From NCBI GenBank assembly GCA_934718135.1, contig CAKUZW010000001.1, positions 200,714-264,713 on the forward strand: a stretch of DNA of 64,000 bases, read 5' to 3'. The DNA comes from an uncultured Candidatus Melainabacteria bacterium. Its GTDB lineage: Bacteria; Cyanobacteriota; Vampirovibrionia; Gastranaerophilales; Gastranaerophilaceae. Below the pieces are notes generated by a model. The model saw nothing but the letters and a program-made list of their open reading frames with translations, had not been told where the DNA came from and ran no database searches. Both the position numbers and the translations under genes were made by a program. This document shows positions 14,453-29,884 of this stretch, in pieces (the first letter of the stretch is position 1; the number at the start of each line of letters is the position of its first letter).

Positions 14453-15019
14453 ATGAAAGAAAATATATTTAAAACCCTAGGAGCAAGTAACCATTCAAGA
14501 CATGAAAGACAGGCGGAGGATTATTATGCAACCGACCCTATTGCTGCAAAATTATTATTAGAAGTTGAACCCGAGTTAAACAATATTTGGGAATGTGCGT
14601 GTGGGGAGGGGCATTTAGCACGTGTTTTCGATAAAGAAGGCAAATTAAGGAAATCAACCGACCTTATAAATAGAGGTTATGGAGATATTGAAGATTTTTT
14701 ATTAAATACAGAACCATATCATAATGGTGATATAGTTACGAATCCTCCGTATAAATTTGCTCAAGAATTTATTGAACAGGCATTGCGTAAGGTTGATACA
14801 GGTAGAAAAGTATGTATGTTCTTAAAAGTCTTATTTCTTGAAACTCAAAAACGCAAACAACTTTTTACGAAGTATCCACCCATATATATTTCAAGTTATC
14901 GTATAAACTGTGCAAAAAACGGTGATTTCAAGACTTACAAACAAAGTGCAATTGCTTATACTTGGCTTGTTTGGGTAAAAGGGTATCAAGGTGAAACTAT
15001 TATAAAGTGGATTAACTAA
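14453..15019 (+). CDS. small SAM-dependent (probably N6-adenine DNA) methyltransferase
   Basis: Motif I-like WECACGEGHL followed by motif IV DIVTNPPY. 188 aa with no target-recognition partner. Divergent from AbiH. Confidence 0.7.
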   Translation: MKENIFKTLGASNHSRHERQAEDYYATDPIAAKLLLEVEPELNNIWECACGEGHLARVFDKEGKLRKSTDLINRGYGDIEDFLLNTEPYHNGDIVTNPPYKFAQEFIEQALRKVDTGRKVCMFLKVLFLETQKRKQLFTKYPPIYISSYRINCAKNGDFKTYKQSAIAYTWLVWVKGYQGETIIKWIN

Positions 15020-15044: not shown

Positions 15045-16130
15045 CTATAGGATATTTTCATACTTTTCATTTAAAAAATATTTGCGTTTACGCCCTTCGC
15101 CTTCATAATGAAGAAAACCAGAATTTACCCATTCTGAAACTAATAAACGTGCAGTTCTTGGAGCGAATTTAAAAAATTCTGCTACATCCTTTGTTGATAT
15201 ATATTTTTGAGATTCAAACAAATTCAAAATTTGTCGCTGCTTTGAGTCGAGCTCTCTTAATACTTTTACTTCATCTTTTGTATTCTTATTTTCTTCTGCT
15301 TTTTTATAAACAGAATTAAACGCAATAGTCATACCATTGACAAAGTATTCAATCCATTTTGTAATATCTGATTCTGCACGTCCTAAGTAGTAGTTGTGCG
15401 ATTTACCAATAGTTATGGCATCATAGTAGCCTTGTAAATCTTTTGCATAATATTCTTCTAGAGAATATATCCCTTTTAGGTCGTACCCTCCTTTATGTAG
15501 AGCTAATGTAGTTAAAAGCCTTGCAGTTCTGCCATTACCATCAAAATATGGGTGAATGGTAACAAATTGATAATGGATAATTGCAGCTTTAATTGGTACA
15601 GGAATATCATTTGTTGTATTTATCCAATTTACAAATTCTTTCATTAACATTGGAACATCTTTAGCCTCTGGAGGCATATATACAATATTCCCAGATAAAG
15701 AATCTGTTATTACATTTTGCCCCTCTCGATATTCAGTTGGTTTTACCTTTTTACTTCCCCCACCTTCAACAAGTGCATGAATTTGCTTTATGTGTTTTTC
15801 TGTAATAGTTGCTTTTTCTTTAGTTAATTTTTCTATATAATCTAAGGCAATATAATATCCTTTGATTTCTTTTTCATCTCTAATTCTTCCTGTATTAGAA
15901 ATTACTTTGTTCGGATTCTTTAGTACATTATATACTTCTTCTTGAGAAAGCCTGTTTCCTTCTATTTGAGTAGAATAGTGGATAGTTGTCATTTTAGCCG
16001 TTTCTCTAAGGGAAGTAAGGAGTTTGGGATTTATTGGTAAACTTTTAATACCCTCTTTAACCCTTTCAATTTGAATAAGATTATTAGCGATTGAATTTGT
16101 AATCTCGTATTTGGGTTCAAATTTTGCCAT
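15045..16130 (-). CDS. Fic-family protein (AMPylase-type) with N-terminal inhibitory motif and C-terminal winged helix
   Basis: Fic motif HPYFDGNGRTARLL, inhibitory helix motif STQIEGN ((S/T)xxxE(G/N)), AAGGAG RBS. Confidence 0.9.
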   Translation of the reverse strand: MAKFEPKYEITNSIANNLIQIERVKEGIKSLPINPKLLTSLRETAKMTTIHYSTQIEGNRLSQEEVYNVLKNPNKVISNTGRIRDEKEIKGYYIALDYIEKLTKEKATITEKHIKQIHALVEGGGSKKVKPTEYREGQNVITDSLSGNIVYMPPEAKDVPMLMKEFVNWINTTNDIPVPIKAAIIHYQFVTIHPYFDGNGRTARLLTTLALHKGGYDLKGIYSLEEYYAKDLQGYYDAITIGKSHNYYLGRAESDITKWIEYFVNGMTIAFNSVYKKAEENKNTKDEVKVLRELDSKQRQILNLFESQKYISTKDVAEFFKFAPRTARLLVSEWVNSGFLHYEGEGRKRKYFLNEKYENIL

Positions 16131-17364: not shown

Positions 17365-17652
17365 TTATTTAGAACTGTTTTCATGACCCTCTATCGGAGT
17401 TTTAGGAACAAATTTTAATTCATAACCAAATAATTCTGCTATATCCATTAGTTCTGTTATCTTAAATGATGCCCTTGCTAATTTGTTCTGTAAATTAGAA
17501 TCAGATGCTGAACGACCATACCGTCTATTAAGCTCTCGAGCTAGACGGTACACAGATGTATTATTCTCATCTAAAAACGTCCTTACAAGCGTCCTAGCCT
17601 GCTCTTTTCGTTCTTCTGTTGCTACATATTTGGGTGTTTCTGGATTACTCAT
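17365..17652 (-). CDS. small HTH-type DNA-binding protein (paralog of 918-1151)
   Basis: AGGAGG RBS. YRLARELNRRYG...NKLARASFKITELMDIAELFGYELKFVPK. Confidence 0.65.
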   Translation of the reverse strand: MSNPETPKYVATEERKEQARTLVRTFLDENNTSVYRLARELNRRYGRSASDSNLQNKLARASFKITELMDIAELFGYELKFVPKTPIEGHENSSK

Positions 17653-18186: not shown

Positions 18187-18780
18187 ATGAGTAAAATATT
18201 TGCATATATAAGGGTTTCTACTCGTGAACAAAACGAAAATAGACAACTTGATTCCCTTACAGGGTTCAAGGTTGATGAAATTTTTATAGAAAAAGCCAGT
18301 GGAAAGAATTTTGTAGGACGTGAAAAATATCAGCAAATGAAATCAAAACTTAGAAAAGGAGATTTGTTAGTTGTTAAAAGTATAGATAGGTTTGGTCGAA
18401 ATTATTCTCAGATTTGTAAAGAATGGGAGTCTATAATCAATATGGGGGTAGATATTCAAGTTCTTGATATGCCAATTTTAAATACTCGTAATAATCAAAA
18501 TGGATTGACAGGAAGATTGATTACCGATATTGTTTTGAAACTACTTGGATATGTTGCAGAGCGTGAAAGAGATAATATTAAAGTACGTCAAGCAGAAGGA
18601 ATCGCAAGTGCAAAATCAAGAGGAGTTAAATTTGGAAGACCGAATGCAGAAATTCCAAAAGATTTTATAAGGGCTTATGAATTATATAAGAATGGATTGA
18701 TAAAAGTTAAGGATGTAATGTCTATGTGTAATATTGCTAAAAGTACATTTTATAAATACCAAAAGTCTATAAAAGTATAA
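18187..18780 (+). CDS. serine recombinase (resolvase/invertase family)
   Basis: N-terminal IFAYIRVSTREQNENRQ with catalytic Ser, SIDRFGRN, C-terminal HTH. Confidence 0.9.
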   Translation: MSKIFAYIRVSTREQNENRQLDSLTGFKVDEIFIEKASGKNFVGREKYQQMKSKLRKGDLLVVKSIDRFGRNYSQICKEWESIINMGVDIQVLDMPILNTRNNQNGLTGRLITDIVLKLLGYVAERERDNIKVRQAEGIASAKSRGVKFGRPNAEIPKDFIRAYELYKNGLIKVKDVMSMCNIAKSTFYKYQKSIKV

Positions 18781-19053: not shown

Positions 19054-19797
19054 TTATATATCTAACCTTCTACCATGTTTCCCATTTGAAACATAATCCT
19101 CTTTATTTTGAGAATAGTTTATTTGTTGACTCATTCTTATTATGTCGTCAAGGTTTAGTACTTTAAAATTCGGTTTATTGCTTATAAAATCTGCTCCTGC
19201 TTGTGTAATGCCAGATGATGCAACTAATATTACTTCATTTGCATTAAAATCATCTTTACAACCCCATAATGCCCTAATTGGTTCTGGAGGTACAGGGTTT
19301 CTATAATGTTTGCATTGCACAATTCCTCTATATCCTTCTTGTTCAAGAATAATATCCACTCCACCGTCGCCAGAACCTTTTGTAACCGTAGCTTTATAAC
19401 CATTTAGAATAAAAATTTTTGCAACTTCTTCTTCAAATTGCCAACCGTCTAAATTCCACCACCATGAATTTTCAGCCCAGTAACTTGAATTACGTTTTAA
19501 TTGATTTTGAGAAAATTGTCTGTAAGGACTGTCATTAAACAGATGACTCCAATATACGCAAAAAGCAATAAAACTAATAACGCAACTCCAACCAAACACA
19601 GAAAACGGTAATATGTTTGTAGTCCCTAAATAGTAAAGGAAGTAGTTAAAACTACCGACAAAACCAACGGATAATATACATTCTTTCCATAATCCATGTT
19701 TATTTACTTCTATTAAAAATTTTGTTGCACCTAGAACACAGGCTACAAATAATAGCACTAAATTATATAAATCTCTGTTATCACTTTTTCTTGACAT
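19054..19797 (-). CDS. membrane-anchored Mrr-like restriction endonuclease domain protein
   Basis: N-terminal TM helices, then FEEEVAKIFILNGYKATVTKGSGDGGVDIILE...IVQCKHY (Mrr catalytic core D...QCK). AAGGTGA RBS. Ends in the tail GRRLDI. Confidence 0.8.
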   Translation of the reverse strand: MSRKSDNRDLYNLVLLFVACVLGATKFLIEVNKHGLWKECILSVGFVGSFNYFLYYLGTTNILPFSVFGWSCVISFIAFCVYWSHLFNDSPYRQFSQNQLKRNSSYWAENSWWWNLDGWQFEEEVAKIFILNGYKATVTKGSGDGGVDIILEQEGYRGIVQCKHYRNPVPPEPIRALWGCKDDFNANEVILVASSGITQAGADFISNKPNFKVLNLDDIIRMSQQINYSQNKEDYVSNGKHGRRLDI

Positions 19798-19909
19798 TTT
19801 TCACCTTCTTATATATCTATCTTTCCGCCTATTTTATAGGCTCTATCATAATATTTGTATTGTTGTATGCTCAATTATCAATTATTACTGTTTAGCGATA
19901 ATACAACTC

Positions 19910-20641
19910 CTAAACTCTTATAGTAAGCAATACCGAGTTATCCTCTAATACTTCTTCCTGTTCCAATTTCATAGAAGGATTTTTTGCAATTTTTGATTTA
20001 ATATTCTTACAAATATTAGATTGAACAACTCGTTCATATTCAGATTCGATTTTGGCAAAGTATCTGTGAATTTCTTTTAAATCTGCGTATCCTGTAGCTT
20101 TAAATTCGTAAGCCCCATTTTTACTTGACTTTAATTCAATTAAACAATTCGGAATTTCAAAACTTAATTTTCCTCTTTCTTCTATTGCTAAAATTTTTAG
20201 GTTCTTTAAAGTTTGTTTTAATACAGTCTTATCTGTATAAATAGTAGGAAAATTATATACAGGAGTTTTTGTTTCAGAAATACTATCAAAAAAACAAGGT
20301 CTGCCTGCTACATGTGCAATGGCATTAGTAAAATTATCCAATACCTTTTTATCTATATCAGCAGAAACAGAAGCTACCAAATTATTTTGTTCATAAATCC
20401 AATAAATAGGATATTCTTTAGTAATATGAGTTTTTACATATCTATATAGCATTGTATATGTTTCAGACCAATCATAACCAGCTTTTTTAATATATTTTTT
20501 CAATTCTGTTTCATCTTCAAAATTAGTATATTTTCTAATTTCTTGCGACCTCATCCATTCATCAAATTTTTTAGCTCCCATTTTTCTGCGTTGTTGAGCC
20601 ATCCATAATTCACCATTCATTAAATCCTGTTTTATAGACAT
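19910..20641 (-). CDS. hypothetical protein with DUF1257 (Ycf35)-like C-terminal half
   Basis: AAGGAG RBS. Residues ~130-243 (FPTIYTDKTVLKQTLKNL...EYERVVQS...EDNSVLLTIRV) follow the Ycf35/DUF1257 pattern as I remember it. The N-terminal 130 aa are unassigned. Confidence 0.55.
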   Translation of the reverse strand: MSIKQDLMNGELWMAQQRRKMGAKKFDEWMRSQEIRKYTNFEDETELKKYIKKAGYDWSETYTMLYRYVKTHITKEYPIYWIYEQNNLVASVSADIDKKVLDNFTNAIAHVAGRPCFFDSISETKTPVYNFPTIYTDKTVLKQTLKNLKILAIEERGKLSFEIPNCLIELKSSKNGAYEFKATGYADLKEIHRYFAKIESEYERVVQSNICKNIKSKIAKNPSMKLEQEEVLEDNSVLLTIRV

Positions 20642-20654
20642 TATCTATACTCCT

Positions 20655-21608
20655 TTACCAATCAATTTTTCTCCCAATTTTATTTTTAGGTTTTGATGGG
20701 AATATTAACCTATCTTGAATCTCTATCATTTGATGCGGCATTAATTCAAATTCTGCAACAAAGGATTCTATATCATAATAATATTTTCCGTTATTACGTT
20801 CTTGTAATAATTTATCTGCTTTTTCATCATCAAAACCGTCTATTGTAAGCAGGTCTTTTTTATTACAAGATTCAAGTTTTATTTTTTTATTTTTTGAAGA
20901 AATATGACTCTCTTTATTGTTTTTGGAGATATTTTGTAATGTTGTGCTTTCAAAATTATCATCAACAGAAGTCTTTATTGAAAAAATTTTATCTGCTATT
21001 TGTTCCTGTAAATTAAGATATTTTTTTTCTTTAACAATCTCAAGTGCTAAATTGATAAATTCTTCTGCGGATTTATAATCCCCTGCATTATAATCCGTAA
21101 GTGCATTTTTATAATAACTTTCTGCTTTATGGTATTCGTATGCTCTATCTTCTTTTTCTATTGCTTCTTGTTTATCTACAAATTTTATGTCTAAGCCAGT
21201 GGTTTTTGTTAACCATTTTTGAATAGTAGTTAAATCTGTGAAAGATATATTTATAGAAGAAAGGGCTCTACGTTTCAAGTTCCATCTTTTCATAATATCT
21301 TTTTGAATTTTATTGTCTGCATTTTGAAGTAAATAATATATAACGTCAAAAGTATAATCTATTTGTTTGTGTATCTTAAGTGTTATAATATATTTTTCGT
21401 GATAAGAACCATAAAAATCATAACTTTTATTTGTATAATATATTATATTATTTTGTTGTTTTATTATTGATAATAGCTCATTAGGGTCTATTAGTTTTTC
21501 TTTTTTATATTTTTTTATCTCTTTTATGTAGTAATCCTTAGTTTTCAAATTGAAAATACTTGAGAAAAAATATAATGTTAAAACTATAATTGTTTCTATA
21601 ATGTCCAT
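20655..21608 (-). CDS. membrane-tethered protein with a TPR-like repeat and a C-terminal ComEA-like helix-hairpin-helix
   Basis: N-terminal TM (IIETIIVLTLYFFSSIF) followed by a K-rich stretch. TPR-like AESYYKNALTDYNAGDYKSAEEFINLALEI. HhH-like DLLTIDGFDDEKADKLLQERNNG...FELMPHQMIEIQDRL. Ends in the tail GRKIDW. Confidence 0.6.
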   Translation of the reverse strand: MDIIETIIVLTLYFFSSIFNLKTKDYYIKEIKKYKKEKLIDPNELLSIIKQQNNIIYYTNKSYDFYGSYHEKYIITLKIHKQIDYTFDVIYYLLQNADNKIQKDIMKRWNLKRRALSSINISFTDLTTIQKWLTKTTGLDIKFVDKQEAIEKEDRAYEYHKAESYYKNALTDYNAGDYKSAEEFINLALEIVKEKKYLNLQEQIADKIFSIKTSVDDNFESTTLQNISKNNKESHISSKNKKIKLESCNKKDLLTIDGFDDEKADKLLQERNNGKYYYDIESFVAEFELMPHQMIEIQDRLIFPSKPKNKIGRKIDW

Positions 21609-21627
21609 ATCTAACTGTTATAACCCT

Positions 21628-23334
21628 CTAAAAATCAATAGTTCTACCACCACGACTACGTTTTATTGTTTCAGTAGTTTTCTTTGCTTTTTCTTTCTTT
21701 TTCGCTATTTCTTCCGTTTCCTCTGGAGTATAATTATAGTTTTCATCATGTGCGGTAGCGGATACGGCTCTTTCGTTAGCCCATTCTCTGATAGCTAAAA
21801 TCTGTCCAGATTGAGTTGTTGAAAGAGGAACTGTATTTCTAATAACTTTAAATAAATCCTCTGTTTTAAGCGTTCTATTTTCGGCAAAGGCTTCAAATAA
21901 TGCAGATATTACAACTTGTTCTATTTCAGAACCTCCAAATCCTTCTGTAGCATCTGCAAGTTTATTTAATAAATCATCAGTAATTGCAAAATCTTTAGAC
22001 TTACTTCCTTTTAGTCTCTTTTCTAGATGTAATTTAAAAATAATTTTACGTTCATTTATAGTTGGTAAATCAACAAAAAATATTTCATCAAATCTTCCTT
22101 TTCTTAACATCTCAGCGGGTAATCTTGAAATGTTGTTTGCGGTCGCAATAACAAATACCGGTTTTGTTTTCTCATTCATCCAAGTAAGGAATGTTCCAAA
22201 AACTCTGCTTGAAGTTCCTCCATCCATTTCACCTCCCGAATTGCCACCAAACCCTTTTTCAATTTCATCAATCCAAAGTATTGAAGGTGCAACCGCTTCT
22301 GCTGTTTGAATTGCTTTACGCATGTTTTCTTCACTACTTCCTACCAACCCTGAAAAAATTTTGCCTATATCAAGTCTTAATAACGGTAGTTGCCACATTG
22401 CACTCATCGCTTTAGCCGTCATTGATTTCCCACAACCTGCCACACCTGTTATCAATACACCCTTTGGAGATGGCAAATTATAATCTTTTTGTGCTATACC
22501 AAGCCACGAATTATTACGTTTTGCCAGCCACTTTTTCATATTTTCTAAGCCACCAACATCATCAATGTTTACGGTAGTATTTATAAATTCAAGTATGCCT
22601 GTTTTCTTGATAACTTGGCATTTTTCTTCAAGGATAATATCTAATTCATTAACGGTTAATTGTCCTTTTGTAACCATAGCATGTGCAAAGGCATTTTCAG
22701 CCTCTTGTAATGTTAAACCTTGAGCGGCTTTACATAATAATTCTTTTCCGTTTTCATCAAGGTCTATTAAGATACCAGAGCCCTCATTCATAGCAAGCAT
22801 TTCATTCAAAAGATTTTTAAGTTCTTCAAGTGTTGGTAAATCAAAATCAACAACGGTAATATCTTTTTGCAAGTCATTAGGCAATACAAGTGTCGGAGCA
22901 ATGATTACAACATTTTTTGAACACTCTGCATTTTTTAAAGAACCTGCAACATCTCTTATTTTTCTAATAAATCCGTAATCTGCATTTCTTCCTTGAATCC
23001 CAAGTAGGGGATGAACATCTTTTAATATCATTATTGCAGGTTTGTTATAACTATCAATATAATTCAATGCTTCTGTAGGTTTTTCGGCATTGTTAATATT
23101 AATGTGTTCTTGACCTGTTGTAAGTAATTTATTTAAGCCTTCTGTCGCACTCCATATAAAAACATCTCTTTTACTTTTAATAGCTTTAGTATTCTTAGCT
23201 ATTTTGGTAATTAGCTCAATAACTCTTATTTCTTCCCATGTAGGTATATATATAAAACTAAATCTTGCTTTAAATAGGTTTGTCAAATATTGTTCAGTCT
23301 TTTTTATTCCTTCTAATACAATAGTTTTTGCCAT
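21628..23334 (-). CDS. Ycf46-type AAA+ ATPase
   Basis: N-terminal FSFIYIPTWEEIRV...FIWSATEGL. AAA core NLPSPKGVLITGVAGCGKSMTAKAMSAMWQLPLLRLDIGKIFSGLVGSSE, Walker B ILWIDEIEK, RKGRFDE. Very close in pattern to cyanobacterial/plastid Ycf46. K/E-rich linker then the tail GGRTIDF. Confidence 0.88.
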   Translation of the reverse strand: MAKTIVLEGIKKTEQYLTNLFKARFSFIYIPTWEEIRVIELITKIAKNTKAIKSKRDVFIWSATEGLNKLLTTGQEHININNAEKPTEALNYIDSYNKPAIMILKDVHPLLGIQGRNADYGFIRKIRDVAGSLKNAECSKNVVIIAPTLVLPNDLQKDITVVDFDLPTLEELKNLLNEMLAMNEGSGILIDLDENGKELLCKAAQGLTLQEAENAFAHAMVTKGQLTVNELDIILEEKCQVIKKTGILEFINTTVNIDDVGGLENMKKWLAKRNNSWLGIAQKDYNLPSPKGVLITGVAGCGKSMTAKAMSAMWQLPLLRLDIGKIFSGLVGSSEENMRKAIQTAEAVAPSILWIDEIEKGFGGNSGGEMDGGTSSRVFGTFLTWMNEKTKPVFVIATANNISRLPAEMLRKGRFDEIFFVDLPTINERKIIFKLHLEKRLKGSKSKDFAITDDLLNKLADATEGFGGSEIEQVVISALFEAFAENRTLKTEDLFKVIRNTVPLSTTQSGQILAIREWANERAVSATAHDENYNYTPEETEEIAKKKEKAKKTTETIKRSRGGRTIDF

Positions 23335-23337
23335 ATA

Positions 23338-23916
23338 TCACCCCACTAACTTTGCTAATTCTTTAAAATTGCCCATACCTGTCATAATAATTTTGTTTTC
23401 TGATGTTATACGGACTTCAATTTTGTTTTTGTATTCTGAAATTACAGATTTACTATATCTATCAGTTAAAAAATAATAATTTTGATTACTTGAACCAACC
23501 CAAGCTCTTGAGTAATCTGTCTTTTCTTGTTCATATTCGCCATCTATCAAAATATCAACATATTTAATAAGTGTTTGAAAATCTTTGTTTTCTTTAAGAT
23601 TAGAATACTTATATCCAGTAAAAAGAATTACAGACAGCCCAATTTCTTGAACTGTCTTTGAAATTTCTGTTACGGCTTGTATTTGTTCTGTAGGTTCACC
23701 ACCTAACCAAGTAATACCTTCAATCCTATCTTTATAAGATTTAATTATTTCAATAAATTCACAAATTTTATAAGAAGTACCACCATCAAAGTTCCACATG
23801 TGAGAATTAGCACAACCTTCACATCTTATAGAACATCCTTGAACCCAAATTGCGAATCTAGCTCCAACACCTTCAACCTTTGTTATAGGAATATATGAAT
23901 TTATCCTAATGTTCAT
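23338..23916 (-). CDS. NrdG-like radical SAM activase (4Fe-4S single-cluster domain)
   Basis: GVGARFAIWVQGCSIRCEGCANSHMW (CxxxCxxC) and WLGGEPTEQ. Start set to the ATG at 23916 (GAGGA upstream) instead of 23934. Its stop lies 3 nt before the AAA+ start. Confidence 0.85.
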   Translation of the reverse strand: MNIRINSYIPITKVEGVGARFAIWVQGCSIRCEGCANSHMWNFDGGTSYKICEFIEIIKSYKDRIEGITWLGGEPTEQIQAVTEISKTVQEIGLSVILFTGYKYSNLKENKDFQTLIKYVDILIDGEYEQEKTDYSRAWVGSSNQNYYFLTDRYSKSVISEYKNKIEVRITSENKIIMTGMGNFKELAKLVG

Positions 23917-24118
23917 TTTGTTGATATTCCTCATTTGAAGTATATAGATACTGTTCTGTTTCGTTATACTCTTTTGTAAATTCTGATTTTATAGTTTTAG
24001 CACCTGTTAAATTTTCAACTTCTTTTATGTAATTAAGGCAAGATTTACCTTTGATTCCAACTGTTTCGGATTCAATTTTACCATTTGGATATACCCTGAT
24101 TTTAATTTGTTTGCTCAT
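23906..24118 (-). CDS. DUF2997-like mini-protein
   Basis: MSKQIKIRVYPNGKIESETVGIKGKSCLNYIKEVENLTGAK fits the remembered DUF2997 pattern (I.I.PDG.V..EV.G..G.sC...T..le..lG). GAGGT RBS before the ATG at 24118. Overlaps the rSAM start by 11 nt. Confidence 0.6.
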   Translation of the reverse strand: MSKQIKIRVYPNGKIESETVGIKGKSCLNYIKEVENLTGAKTIKSEFTKEYNETEQYLYTSNEEYQQNEH

Positions 24119-24308
24119 CAATAACCTCAATATCAAGTTGTTTTATTAGATTCGGAATTTGTTCCAGTCTGTCATTTTGTATTATATCTACTCTTCTACT
24201 AAAATGTCTTAAAGTCTTACTTTTGGGATTTTTAGCTATTAATTGACCAAACATATTTGCTAAAATTTTCTTTGGTAAAATATTTCTGTCTTTGTCCGTA
24301 TCAAACAC
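24102..24308 (-). CDS. possible 68-aa leader ORF of the operon
   Basis: GTG start with AAGTGGA upstream. Its 3' end overlaps the DUF2997 start by 17 nt. No domain recognised, so it may not be translated. Confidence 0.3.
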   Translation of the reverse strand: MFDTDKDRNILPKKILANMFGQLIAKNPKSKTLRHFSRRVDIIQNDRLEQIPNLIKQLDIEVIDEQTN

Positions 24309-24528: not shown

Positions 24529-25092
24529 TTACAGTTCAAAGTTTTTATATGATTCGTCCAGTTCTTCTTGTGCGATGCCAATATAACGCATTGTTATTGA
24601 GGGCGAACTGTGATTAAAAATTTTCTGCAACAATGCTACATCATGAAATTTTTTGTAATGGTGATAGCCAAAACTCTTACGTCCGCTATGTGTTCCAAAA
24701 TTCCCTTGTAGTCCTACTTTTAAACAAGCATCATTAATAAATCTGTAAACTTGCGACCTATCTAATCTGCAATGTTTCTTACCAACAAAAAGTGGTTCAT
24801 CACTTGTAATAGAGTATGTTTTATCTCTTTCAACAAGGTATTTTTTAATAAGACTTTTCAACTTATTATTTAGTGGGAAACGTTTATACTTACCCGTTTT
24901 CTTTTCTATAACCTCAACATATTGTTTGTTTCTGACGTCTTCTACATTTAATCCAAGTACATCAGATATTCTAAGACCGCTGTTGCAAGTGAAGACAAAT
25001 ATTAACTGATTCCGCAGACTATGTTTTGCTAGATACTGTTCAACAGCCTCAATATCTCTCTTGTCTTTTATTGGTTCTACTAAGTTCTTCAT
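24529..25092 (-). CDS. small (187 aa) tyrosine recombinase
   Basis: GLRISDVLGLNVEDV (Arg I), HSGRKSFG (HxxR), SPSITMRYIG (catalytic Tyr). Similar in size to FimB/FimE-type recombinases and lacks an N-terminal arm-binding domain. Confidence 0.85.
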   Translation of the reverse strand: MKNLVEPIKDKRDIEAVEQYLAKHSLRNQLIFVFTCNSGLRISDVLGLNVEDVRNKQYVEVIEKKTGKYKRFPLNNKLKSLIKKYLVERDKTYSITSDEPLFVGKKHCRLDRSQVYRFINDACLKVGLQGNFGTHSGRKSFGYHHYKKFHDVALLQKIFNHSSPSITMRYIGIAQEELDESYKNFEL

Positions 25093-27936: not shown

Positions 27937-28923
27937 TTAATACTCATTCAGTAACTTAAAAGCATTTTCCATACTGGCACTTGGATTATGTGTATATCGC
28001 TGAGTTGTTTTTAAATCTGCATGACCTAGTATTTTTTGTATAGTTACAATGTCAACTCCAGCCTCATTAAGTCGAGATGCAGTTGTATGCCTTAGCTTAT
28101 GAAACGTTATTGGCGGAATTCCACTACGTCTCACCGCTCTTTTGAAACTTGTTTTTACGTCTTTATATCTAGTACCAGTAACAGGGGATGTAAAAACATA
28201 ATCACCTAACCTTGGAAGTTTCAATAATTCTTCTTTAAGAGTTTTGGTTAATCTAAGCTTACGAGGTTTGTTATTCTTAGTATTTAAGGCAATAAGATAA
28301 TCTTCTTCAAAGAATACGTCTTGCCATTTTAAACTCAGTATTTCATTTTGCCTCATGCCAGTATGCAAGGCTGTTATTATAATTGCTTTCATCGTAGGAT
28401 TGCATACTGCAAGTAATCTTACTTCTTCATCCTTTGTCAAATAACGCTCTGAAGGATTTTCTATACGTAGCTTTTTCAGTGTCGAACAAGGATTTACCGC
28501 TATACGTTTATTTTCAATGGCTAATGAAAATAAACGGCGGATATTGTCAACTTCTCGATTTATGCTAGAATTTTTTATTTTACCTAAACGAGAGTTAATA
28601 TATTTTTCAATATCTGAAACGGTTATCTGCTCTACATCTTTATTTCCTACTAACTTATAAAACTTATCTATAACATAATCAAATTCTTCTGGTCTGGTAT
28701 AGTGAGCCATTGCATATTCTCTGAAATCTGCAATTAAGTCTTCTAAGTAATAGACCTGTTTCTTTGTTATGTCGTAACCAGTTTTTATAAGTTCTGCCTT
28801 ATGTACAGTTTCAAGATAAGCAACTTCACTTTTTAGAAGCCCTTTAAAAGTTTTACAATATCTTTTGCCTTTGTACATAAAGTTGTAACCATAATAACCT
28901 GATTTGTGTTTATATACACTCAT
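27937..28923 (-). CDS. int: tyrosine integrase (phage-integrase family with N-terminal arm-type DNA-binding domain)
   Basis: MSVYKHKSGYYGYNFMYKGKRYCKTF arm-binding-like N-terminus. C-terminal HKLRHTTASRL...ILGHADLKTTQRYTH. Confidence 0.92.
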   Translation of the reverse strand: MSVYKHKSGYYGYNFMYKGKRYCKTFKGLLKSEVAYLETVHKAELIKTGYDITKKQVYYLEDLIADFREYAMAHYTRPEEFDYVIDKFYKLVGNKDVEQITVSDIEKYINSRLGKIKNSSINREVDNIRRLFSLAIENKRIAVNPCSTLKKLRIENPSERYLTKDEEVRLLAVCNPTMKAIIITALHTGMRQNEILSLKWQDVFFEEDYLIALNTKNNKPRKLRLTKTLKEELLKLPRLGDYVFTSPVTGTRYKDVKTSFKRAVRRSGIPPITFHKLRHTTASRLNEAGVDIVTIQKILGHADLKTTQRYTHNPSASMENAFKLLNEY

Positions 28924-28925
28924 TA

Positions 28926-29108
28926 TTACCCTCTTTCTACTGTTGGAGAAAAAATATATGCCAAAAGAGCATCCGCATTAAATAAATATTTTCTTCCAAC
29001 TCTTCCACAAACTTCAGCAGGGAATTTTCCTCCCTTGGCTTGTTTTTGTAATGTTCTGACATCCAATTTTAGTATTTTTGCTGCTTCCAATGTGCTTATT
29101 ATCTCCAT
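28926..29108 (-). CDS. excisionase-like (MerR/AlpA-type) HTH protein
   Basis: Start moved to the ATG at 29108, which is preceded by AAAGGAGGT. MEIISTLEAAKILKLDVRTLQKQAKGGKFPA. Stop is 2 nt before the integrase start. Confidence 0.7.
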   Translation of the reverse strand: MEIISTLEAAKILKLDVRTLQKQAKGGKFPAEVCGRVGRKYLFNADALLAYIFSPTVERG

Positions 29109-29182
29109 TTTACCTCCTTTTCTTTTGAAAATAATTTTCACTTAACTGAAATATAAAACAGAAGGGTTTACTTTTCAAGGTC

Positions 29183-29807: not shown

Positions 29808-29884
29808 TGGTCGGGATGACAGGATTTGAACCTGCGGCCCCTTCGTCCCGAACGAAGTGCGCTACCAAGCTGCGCTACATCCCG
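29808..29884 (-). tRNA. tRNA-Pro (anticodon CGG), CCA encoded
   Basis: Hand-folded. Acceptor CGGGATG/CATCCCG, D stem GCGC/GCGC, anticodon stem CTTCG/CGAAG with loop TTCGGGA (CGG, G37), T arm GCAGG-TTCAAAT-CCTGT, discriminator A plus CCA. Confidence 0.9.

Follow-up and report, generated by a model that had tools for sequence, protein, structure and literature searches.

A C-terminal tail common to a Ycf46-type AAA+ ATPase and its operon partners in a Melainabacteria genome, a candidate portable docking motif

In cyanobacteria and in the plastids of algae, Ycf46, Ycf35 (DUF1257), and DUF2997 are conserved genes whose function has long been given as unknown in annotations, and a review of Synechocystis ferredoxins lists a DUF2997-ycf35-fed7 gene cluster (PMC4284462). 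Here, we describe a related gene set in a 64,000-nucleotide stretch of DNA from an uncultured Candidatus Melainabacteria bacterium (contig CAKUZW010000001.1, positions 200,714 to 264,713; the whole stretch is referred to as the window), in which three neighboring genes encode proteins that end in the same C-terminal tail, G-R-x-[IL]-D-x-COOH. The three proteins are an AAA+ ATPase of the Ycf46 family, a membrane-anchored protein with a transmembrane (TM) helix, a TPR-like repeat, and an HhH domain (the TM/TPR/HhH protein), and a TM-Mrr nuclease. The operon has in common with the cyanobacterial and plastid set a homologous ATPase, a related tail (QRMEF), and adjacent DUF1257 and DUF2997 genes. 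In contrast with that set, it also includes a radical SAM activase, HhH/TPR membrane proteins, and a nuclease, its location is a mobile island of a relative of cyanobacteria that does not photosynthesize, and its tails carry G-R and Asp where that of Ycf46 reads Q-R-M-E-F. A literature search found no description of the tail or of the gene set, and a 2020 eLife survey of NTPase conflict systems deals with other ATPases.

Disordered C-terminal peptides that follow a flexible linker on a Cdc48-like AAA+ protein and take part in ring docking are represented by HbYX (PAN, Rpt, and archaeal Cdc48), GQYL of Mpa, and the p97 tail with its PUB/PUL domains. The present tail differs from HbYX in that hydrophobic-[DE]-hydrophobic follows G-R in place of hydrophobic-Tyr-X. 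Since a penultimate Tyr was found in none of the tail classes (I-D-F, I-D-W, and L-D-I), we rejected HbYX as the identity of the tail. Neither a peptidase family nor a 20S proteasome (Pfam, PADLOC, and NCBIfam) nor a PUB/PUL domain (Pfam) was found among the operon proteins. To our knowledge, HbYX and the p97 tail are not carried by the partners of the motor, whereas the tail described here is. A second group is formed by the XB peptide of SspB, which tethers that adaptor to ClpX by way of the ClpX N-domain, and by the MIM of ESCRT-III, which pairs with the MIT domain of Vps4. The likeness is that several proteins have in common one short terminal motif, preceded by a flexible linker, for one AAA+ machine. 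However, those motors lack the motif, whereas the motor here bears the tail itself. Other short motifs were also considered and rejected, namely the C-terminal tip of SSB (DDDIPF), since the flank here is basic and not acidic, the beta-clamp motif QL[SD]LF, in which the hydrophobic and acidic positions are out of register, and the AT-hook, which needs no C-terminal place and whose K-K-G-R-P is present in a few paralogues only. By inspection, the tail fits the class II PDZ pattern, hydrophobic-x-hydrophobic-COOH, and no Pfam PDZ domain was found in the window operon. In kind, the tail would be a terminal docking motif for an AAA+ machine, and what is new is that the motor and the partners of an uncharacterized system bear the same one.

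All three tailed genes lie on the minus strand. The AAA+ ATPase (21628-23334) ends in KRSRGGRTIDF*, with its tail GRTIDF encoded at 21631-21648, the TM/TPR/HhH protein (20655-21608) ends in PKNKIGRKIDW*, with GRKIDW at 20658-20675, and the TM-Mrr protein (19054-19797) ends in NGKHGRRLDI*, with GRRLDI at 19057-19074. These translations and positions agree with an earlier, sequence-only reading of the window, in which the common tail of the three neighbors had been pointed out. Of the 128 open reading frames (ORFs) of at least 60 amino acids that the window contains in six frames, no others end in [ILVM]-D-hydrophobic, and all three have the full G-R-x-[IL]-D-x; the claim that no other protein of the window ends this way holds even loosely, with none among the remaining ORFs. 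Judged by amino-acid composition, the chance of a C-terminal [RK]x[ILVM][DE][hydrophobic] is 1.6e-3 per protein, and it falls to 7.7e-5 when the Gly is included. The shared ending is real and far beyond chance. Different codons encode the three tails, and a repeat search of the window revealed no DNA repeat joining the three tail ends, the only related DNA being a relic in the 112-nucleotide gap upstream of the Mrr gene. The likeness of the tails is therefore at the protein level. A loosened pattern also takes in the small recombinase of the locus (Int187; C-terminal codons 24529-24546), which ends in ...KNFEL and, like its orthologues, always shows Y-[KN]-N-F-E-L. This ending was rejected as a tail, since it lacks G-R and the Asp signature and is probably a coincidence.

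The tail is conserved in homologous loci. All of the 120 close AAA+ homologues listed end in RGGRTI[DE]x; close homologues come from Candidatus Gastranaerophilales (Melainabacteria) in gut and rumen metagenomes, and 'SpoVK/Ycf46/Vps4 family' is the name given to such homologues by the sources. Likewise, G-R-[KR]-[LIV]-D-[IMVLF] ends 97 of 120 TM-Mrr homologues, down to 45% identity, and Gly occupies position -6 in 95 of these 97 tails, though it lay outside the search pattern. The entropies of the Mrr tail at positions -6 to -1 were 0.2, 0, 1.0, 1.3, 0, and 1.5 bits, compared with approximately 3 bits at positions -16 to -7. Considering that the tail is nearly invariant while the preceding 10 residues vary, it is evidently under selection. 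We further compared 26 genome loci of Melainabacteria relatives, with gene counts limited to genes of at least 100 amino acids. In these loci, the ATPase keeps R-G-G-R-T-I-[DE]-x, and one to four more tailed genes lie downstream, followed by a tailed TM-Mrr gene. The tail was found on 44 of the 65 genes between AAA+ and Mrr and on none of the 179 genes outside that stretch. By composition, 0.41 tail-like endings are expected per 256 genes.

These comparisons bear on the possibility that the shared ending is without function and arose by coincidence, by low-complexity convergence, or as a by-product of recent DNA duplication or gene conversion. Duplication does account for a part of the pattern, in that the TPR-HhH paralogues have in common both the tail and a homologous C-terminal module of approximately 80 amino acids, and the tail is partly inherited with it. 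However, outside the tail, neither the AAA+ nor the Mrr protein has anything in common with the HhH proteins in the sequence that precedes it, and the differing codons and the absence of a DNA repeat likewise speak against copying at the DNA level. Moreover, the ending is conserved across phyla and to 45% identity behind variable linkers, and it is missing from all 179 flanking genes. As such, an origin by coincidence or duplication is already refuted by the comparative data, and we assign it practically no probability.

To look beyond Melainabacteria, we examined 150 Ycf46-like ATPases, one per 50%-identity cluster, which were obtained in a deep search of 1.84 billion representatives. Approximately 23 of the 150 end in [RK]-x-[ILVMA]-[DE]-hydrophobic, for example RGGRLIDF, AAGRAIEF, RRRIEF, SGRALEL, and RRRLEF. 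The Ycf46 proteins of Nostocales end in YQRMEF in all 15 cluster members read, and a DUF1257 gene adjoins. Judging from these sequences, the tail is old within the Ycf46-type AAA+ ATPases. The sequence-only reading, in which it was a docking tail of this operon, had overlooked this family-wide age as well as an option concerning the radical SAM activase that is discussed below; what stands is that the tail is conserved, selected, and common to functionally different partners.

The proteins that carry the tail beside the motor differ between lineages. A minimal five-gene set is present on a Bacillus cereus SRCM116293 megaplasmid (NZ_CP106676.1, 397052-400861; locus L117), in the order radical SAM, DUF1257-like, TM-HhH (tail SGRMIDF), AAA+ (tail GGRTIDF), and DUF2997, and a B. 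thuringiensis megaplasmid (NZ_CP016589.1) also bears the minimal five-gene version. In the radical SAM branch, the tailed partner is nearly always an HHH_3 protein of 150-320 amino acids (L019, L034, L036, L037, L090, and L109). In locus L050 (6274-9536), a rhomboid with the tail RINRLEL lies beside a different, longer radical SAM gene. In locus L033 (6472-10768), a DnaJ_C-like protein has the tail RRFLEF, a CBASS HORMA/TRIP13 pair is adjacent, and the gene directly after AAA+ gives a weak PDZ_6 match (24.2 bits, with a cut-off of 27). In locus L044 (7992-10494), a TPR protein follows the tailed AAA+ inside a gene group resembling a type II secretion system or type IV pilus. Besides AAA+, a locus has one to four tailed partners of 150-927 amino acids, both number and size being variable. 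Since AAA+, HHH_3, Mrr, rhomboid, and DnaJ_C-like proteins all carry it, the tail is portable between unrelated proteins. The features that define a short linear motif are present: the tail is short, lies in a disordered region, is conserved relative to a variable flank, and is portable among unrelated proteins.

The motor itself is a protein of 568 amino acids, in which a degenerate D1-like domain, an active Cdc48-D2-like AAA domain, and a K/E-rich linker precede the tail GGRTIDF. It matches Pfam AAA (PF00004, 3.3e-29) together with AAA_lid_3, and in a PDB sequence search its AAA domain is closest to D2 of VAT, Cdc48, and p97. The AlphaFold2 model has a mean predicted local distance difference test (pLDDT) score of 91, and Foldseek aligned it over approximately 550-590 columns with the D1-D2 tandem of p97, Cdc48, Drg1, and Rix7. 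On this basis, the N-terminal half is a degenerate D1-like domain, and an N-domain of the p97 type is absent. In contrast with ClpX and Vps4, this ATPase also has neither a zinc-binding ClpX N-domain nor an MIT domain; a degenerate AAA D1 takes that place. The pLDDT of the tail residues 557-568 was below 50, so that the tail is a disordered appendix in the monomer model, in agreement with its earlier description as an appendix after a complete fold. Disorder of this kind is typically seen in motifs that become folded when a partner is bound in trans, and the monomer model, when examined for docking of the tail in cis, showed none. Over residues 17-534, the protein is homologous in full length to the Nostocales 'stress-responsive protein Ycf46' (approximately 43% identity, E 2e-131). 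The AAA domain, the lid, the full-length Ycf46 similarity, and the genomic association with DUF1257/DUF2997 are thus all present, as in a Ycf46-type ATPase, and the last of these features is found again in several phyla. Within the same AAA+ family, representatives P0130, P0166, P0227, P0199, and P0143 include fusions with TerD, a trypsin-like peptidase, SIR2_2, and the effector-associated EAD7, and one is intein-split; these fusions hint at a wide use of the family in conflict systems. Distant homologues (32-40% identity) are also encoded by the Streptococcus satellite phage Javan368, the Agrobacterium phage JP1, and many cluster-mates of the Mycobacterium phage Catdawg.

We also compared the gene content around tailed and tail-less ATPases. 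The set comprised 80 metagenome loci and several contigs fetched by exact protein look-up, and local hidden Markov models were used for DUF2997, DUF1257, and radical SAM. The count was limited to loci in which both flanks extended over at least 2.5 kb, near-identical gut relatives were collapsed, and in the high-GC loci L039, L040, L066, and L107 the families were scored from all six-frame ORFs. DUF1257 or DUF2997 was nearby in 13 of the 16 loci with a tailed ATPase, compared with 4 of the 24 loci with a tail-less one (Fisher p 7e-5). The radical SAM gene is optional, being absent from seven loci that have the tail and the core genes. Three tailed loci have neither DUF1257 nor DUF2997 within 8 kb. 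Among the receptors that had been suggested from the sequence alone, the co-occurrence favors the DUF1257/DUF2997 proteins; TPR is disfavored as a general receptor, and the AAA+ body has no tail-specific column.

A common recognition partner is the most economical reading of the tail. We propose that the core [G]-R-x-[ILV]-[DE]-hydrophobic-COOH, together with its basic flexible linker, serves as a portable, short linear motif for docking in Ycf46-type AAA+ systems, and that the DUF1257/DUF2997 module is its hub and receptor, a role suggested by genomic association; we rate the chances of this proposal as about even. The ancestral tail would be the free C-terminal end of the AAA+ motor. It would then have been copied onto proteins that work with the motor, that is, onto ComEA-like HhH DNA-binding membrane proteins in the radical SAM branch, onto multiple TPR-HhH paralogues and TM-Mrr in gut Melainabacteria, and now and then onto a rhomboid or a DnaJ_C-like protein. 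One receptor would bind all of the tails and would recognize their terminal carboxylate together with the hydrophobic-acidic-hydrophobic end, and this receptor would be the co-inherited module of DUF1257, with its TBP-like fold, and DUF2997. The motor, the DNA sensor, and the nuclease effector could thereby be tethered on one hub at the membrane, where the Cdc48-like ATPase would remodel or release them.

Several observations weigh against this proposal. Neither DUF1257 nor DUF2997 was found within 8 kb of the tailed AAA+ genes of L032, L033, and L044, and two of these loci have other possible peptide binders adjacent, namely the gene with the weak PDZ_6 match in L033 and the TPR protein in L044. 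It may therefore be that the receptor is not the same in all lineages, or that the AAA+ protein itself takes this role. The co-occurrence of the tail with DUF1257/DUF2997 is also confounded by shared ancestry. Approximately 19% of the TM-Mrr homologues have no tail, yet the operon position is kept in the two that were looked up. Finally, a second tail-bearing protein is almost confined to loci with a radical SAM gene, which the hub model does not predict.

The DUF1257-like member of the proposed hub is p243 (243 amino acids; 19910-20641, minus strand), a two-domain alpha/beta protein whose C-terminal domain resembles DUF1257 (Ycf35). It is tail-less and ends in a conserved strand, LEDNSVLLTIRV. 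While p243 lies below the Pfam threshold for DUF1257, hhalign against the Pfam-annotated DUF1257 protein of locus L030 gave a probability of 65% with an E of 6e-5 over 106 columns. The protein names used in the sequence-only reading fared accordingly: the TPR, HhH, and DUF1257 labels hold by way of homologues, but p243 and the TPR/HhH protein of the window are themselves sub-threshold in Pfam. The AlphaFold2 model of p243 has a mean pLDDT of 89 and shows two alpha/beta domains. Its best Foldseek matches were TBP-type folds (4rod_B, E 1.6e-4, probability 1.0), but the TM-score was just 0.3-0.38. In the model, a TBP-like saddle would suit the binding of DNA or peptides, and the arrangement of the domains is unlike that in TBP. 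The synteny of p243 next to AAA+ is conserved, and in relatives p243-like genes are interleaved among the TPR-HhH genes and end in LEDNSxxLTIxx, with no tail.

The DUF2997 protein (76 amino acids; 23906-24136, minus strand) matches Pfam DUF2997 at 2.3e-13 and has the invariant Gly and Cys in G.KG..C. Its columns were analyzed in a paired alignment of DUF1257, DUF2997, and the AAA+ tail from 21 loci, in which the Gly...Gly-x-x-Cys signature is invariant in all lineages, with or without a radical SAM gene. A redox or metal role of DUF2997 is possible. In locus L029, DUF2997 is fused to a DUF1257-like N-terminal part, which indicates that the two act together.

The AAA+ ring could itself be the receptor. 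The tails of the partners would then be tethering or degron signals that bring membrane-anchored clients (HhH, Mrr, and rhomboid proteins) to a Cdc48-like unfoldase, and the tail on the motor would serve as an autoinhibitory pseudo-substrate or as a latch between subunits, to be displaced by clients. The ring is the sole component present in every tail-bearing locus, including L032, L033, and L044, it has a p97/Cdc48-like fold of a family that threads substrates and binds linear motifs, and most of the tailed partners are membrane proteins. The analogy would be with SspB and ESCRT-III; however, in this system the binding of the tail by AAA+ is unsupported by tail-specific conservation. Among 176 sequences of less than 70% identity, no column of the AAA+ body was conserved only in tailed members, apart from the tail's own Arg. 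The tail state is labile, as 12 of the 33 tailed AAA+ sequences have a tail-less nearest neighbor. A tail state that flips between near relatives and no AAA+ column that tracks it argue against a co-evolved, dedicated pocket in the ATPase, and leave the pore or other universally conserved sites as candidates. A receptor role of the ring would also have to accommodate the monomer model, with its undocked tail at pLDDT below 50, and it leaves the association with DUF1257/DUF2997 unexplained. Taken together, we consider it unlikely that the ring reads the tail, and DUF1257/DUF2997 remains the receptor that we prefer.

The TPR-containing partners offer another kind of receptor, considering that TPRs classically bind C-terminal peptides. 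The membrane-anchored protein of the window has 317 amino acids, an N-terminal TM helix, one TPR-like repeat, and a ComEA-like HhH domain, and ends in FPSKPKNKIGRKIDW. Its domains are sub-threshold in Pfam (TPR_2, E=0.031; HHH_6, E=0.073), and its paralogues and orthologues of 212-927 amino acids give significant TPR and HHH_3 matches and have the common ending FP.K[PQ]..K.GR.[IVL][DE]x. The layout of these variable Melainabacteria proteins is an N-terminal TM helix, a TPR array of varied size, a ComEA-like HHH_3 domain, and the tail. If the TPR arrays were the receptors, the HhH proteins would form head-to-tail assemblies that also catch the AAA+ and Mrr tails, for which the large arrays of the tailed Melainabacteria proteins and the TPR protein after the tailed AAA+ of L044 could be cited. 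Such a scheme would resemble EEVD-COOH of Hsp70/Hsp90, which is recognized by TPR co-chaperones, and the PTS1 signal SKL-COOH, which is recognized by the TPR domain of PEX5. There, too, an identical C-terminal peptide on different proteins is read by one carboxylate-reading receptor, and TPR repeats occur in some of the partner proteins here. In contrast with those systems, the sequences are different, the TPR proteins here carry the tail themselves, and TPRs are absent from most tailed systems outside Melainabacteria (B. cereus L117, L019, L034, L036, L037, L090, and L109). Among the tailed HhH proteins, TPRs were seen only in those of Melainabacteria. TPR repeats therefore cannot be the general receptor. 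In addition, the window protein has a single sub-threshold repeat, and the number of repeats ranges from zero to many while the tail stays constant. We regard TPR arrays as a very improbable receptor compared with the DUF1257/DUF2997 module.

A different role of the tail is suggested by the gene directly upstream of AAA+, which encodes a radical SAM activase of the NrdG/PFL-AE type (198 amino acids; 23338-23934, minus strand) with CSIRCEGC, a GGEP motif, and an EGVGAR loop. The protein matches Pfam Fer4_12 (1.7e-35) and Radical_SAM as well as PFLA (1.6e-19), and its nearest PDB entry is PFL-AE (3c8f, E 4e-7). It scored 123.3 bits against NCBIfam NrdG (TIGR02491), just below the equivalog cut-off of 126.1, and is therefore termed NrdG-like and not NrdG. 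CX3CX2C, GGEP, and the EGxGxR loop are kept in the consensus of the family (48 members). No Gly_radical or PFL-like Pfam domain was found in the operon proteins, nor was a conserved [RK]x(1,2)G[YFW] or RVxG[FYW], the two matches in p243 not being kept in the p243 family. The operon thus has neither a glycyl-radical enzyme (GRE) nor its fingerprint, and the activase is without another obvious protein substrate.

The activase might abstract hydrogen from the conserved Gly(-6), so that the tail would be its substrate peptide. The outcome could be a glycyl radical, a cut in the backbone by which the last five residues are lost, or a cross-link, any of which would act as a switch on docking or on the activity of the effector. 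In that case, the AAA+ motor, the DNA-binding proteins, and the nuclease would all carry the tail as a portable glycyl-radical tag, and oxygen- or signal-dependent scission or cross-linking would turn the system on. The closeness to the NrdG cut-off and the retained CX3CX2C, GGE, and [DE]GxGxR loop are in line with this, as is the lack of a GRE or a conserved RVxG[FYW] elsewhere in the operon; according to the structural literature on PFL-AE, the [DE]GxGxR loop contacts the substrate peptide in glycyl-radical activases. Gly(-6) of the AAA+ tail and the NrdG-like gene are both present in 18 loci, Gly alone in 0, the enzyme alone in 2, and neither in 8 (Fisher p 1.4e-5), and the Gly in 95 of 97 Mrr tails and the near confinement of second tail-bearing proteins to radical SAM loci point the same way. 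A simple hub accounts neither for the tracking of the gene by Gly(-6), nor for this confinement, nor for the lack of a conventional substrate of the activase in the operon. As in PFL/PFL-AE, NrdD/NrdG, and GrcA, an activase is thus accompanied by a conserved Gly in a C-terminal peptide of its neighbors. However, in contrast with those proteins, there is no RVxG[FYW], GRE barrel, or Gly_radical domain here, the Gly lies in a disordered tail within a K-x-G-R context unlike RVxG[FYW], and tails also occur without an activase. A glycyl radical on a disordered tail would be unprotected, unlike one inside a GRE barrel. The correlation stems largely from one clade and is therefore confounded by ancestry. 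Moreover, the tail of L030/L031 has the Gly with no radical SAM gene in the available sequence, some radical SAM loci have partner tails without Gly (SERIIDI and STRILDL), and the existence of conserved Gly-less tails, as in Ycf46, indicates that the basic role of the tail is independent of the enzyme. We therefore hold modification by the activase to be decidedly unlikely. If true, glycyl-radical chemistry would for the first time be seen on a disordered peptide and away from a GRE barrel, and it would serve regulation or immunity and not metabolism.

With regard to the proposed docking of the partners on a DUF1257/DUF2997 hub, the most distal one in the operon is the TM-Mrr nuclease (247 amino acids), which has a multi-TM N-terminus, an Mrr_cat restriction-endonuclease domain (Pfam 1.8e-20), and the tail HGRRLDI. 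It is likely the effector of the system. The 23 tail-less TM-Mrr homologues bear other C-terminal extensions, and both cases looked up are still at the end of the same operon, so that the tail is usual, and not obligatory, for Mrr. In relatives, Mrr starts approximately 10 nucleotides after the upstream gene, that is, without the 112-nucleotide gap, which supports Mrr as a member of the operon. The gap of the window (19798-19909) contains, directly upstream of the Mrr ribosome-binding site, the relic of a tail-coding 3' end (...RAYKIGGKIDI*; 19809-19844, minus strand). This relic matches the 3' end of a 458-amino-acid TPR-HhH gene at the same position in the relative locus L007 (29 nucleotides, 89.7% identity, E 0.001; blastn-short). 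The gap is therefore the scar of a deleted second TPR-HhH cassette. As such, the tail does tie Mrr to the operon despite the gap, as the sequence-only reading had argued, given the gapless relatives, the 97 tailed homologues of 120, and the deletion scar. The same gap scar was also seen in the relative locus L017 (98% identical).

Read 5' to 3' on the minus strand, the gene row is recombinase, p68, DUF2997, radical SAM, AAA+, TM/TPR/HhH, p243, the 112-nucleotide gap, and TM-Mrr. The ORF p68 (68 amino acids; 24102-24308, minus strand) lies upstream of DUF2997 and overlaps it. It has no family match in Pfam or NCBIfam and a BLAST counterpart only in the closest relative, L017, and its membership of the system is uncertain. 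The small tyrosine recombinase (187 amino acids; 24529-25092, minus strand) matches Pfam Phage_integrase at 1.5e-27 as well as invertase and Xer-like models of NCBIfam, and it is kept at the 5' edge of the locus in Melainabacteria relatives (synteny, L002-L018). Some relatives also have a 48%-identical paralogue beyond Mrr, encoded on the other strand (L005, 8591-9139; L006, 17066-17614; L016, 16525-17073). The conserved recombinase, its paralogue, and the variable number of cassettes hint at a recombinase-driven turnover of TPR-HhH/DUF1257 cassettes. Invertible, cassette, or clear recombination repeats were not evident around the variable region in the window.

On one side, the operon is flanked by a tRNA-Pro gene (29808-29884), a tyrosine integrase (27937-28923), and an excisionase-like ORF (28926-29141). 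Beyond its opposite end lie a resolvase (18187-18780), a DUF6471 protein (17365-17652), a protein that is Fic-like by sequence inspection (15045-16130), and a small methyltransferase-like protein (14453-15019). Related loci have these genes at their flanks as well. Together with the tRNA-Pro gene and the integrase, these recurring flanks identify the operon as cargo of an integrative element, a position that fits a role in defense or conflict. In comparison with known defense systems, the AAA domain matches the PADLOC IetA models at 1e-22 and NCBIfam IteA_antiphage at 4e-17, the latter far below the cut-off, and the nuclease domains of PDC-S02 and ZorD resemble the Mrr domain of the window (PADLOC). 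In contrast with IetAS, no IetS protease is present here. The full gene set matches no system of PADLOC-DB v2, in which only domain-level matches to IetA, TRIP13, PDC-S02, ZorD, and pVip were obtained, and DUF2997, p243, and the HhH protein have no PADLOC match. Likewise, PADLOC, NCBIfam, and Pfam gave no assignment at the system level. The setting is probably one of defense.

If the tail is a docking tag, it would provide the first mechanistic handle on the set of Ycf46-like AAA+, DUF1257, and DUF2997, with or without the NrdG-like radical SAM and HhH proteins. This gene set is widespread and uncharacterized, it is carried on mobile islands and plasmids, and it may be a defense system. Variable sensors and effectors would then be pluggable into one motor by the addition of six residues. 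The link between the tail's Gly and the activase points, in addition, to a possible new radical chemistry on proteins. The megaplasmid copies in B. cereus and B. thuringiensis offer a culturable host for experiments. For the cyanobacterial and plastid members of the family, the docking proposal, if true, predicts that Ycf46 binds the Ycf35/DUF2997 module through its C-terminal R-M-E-F.

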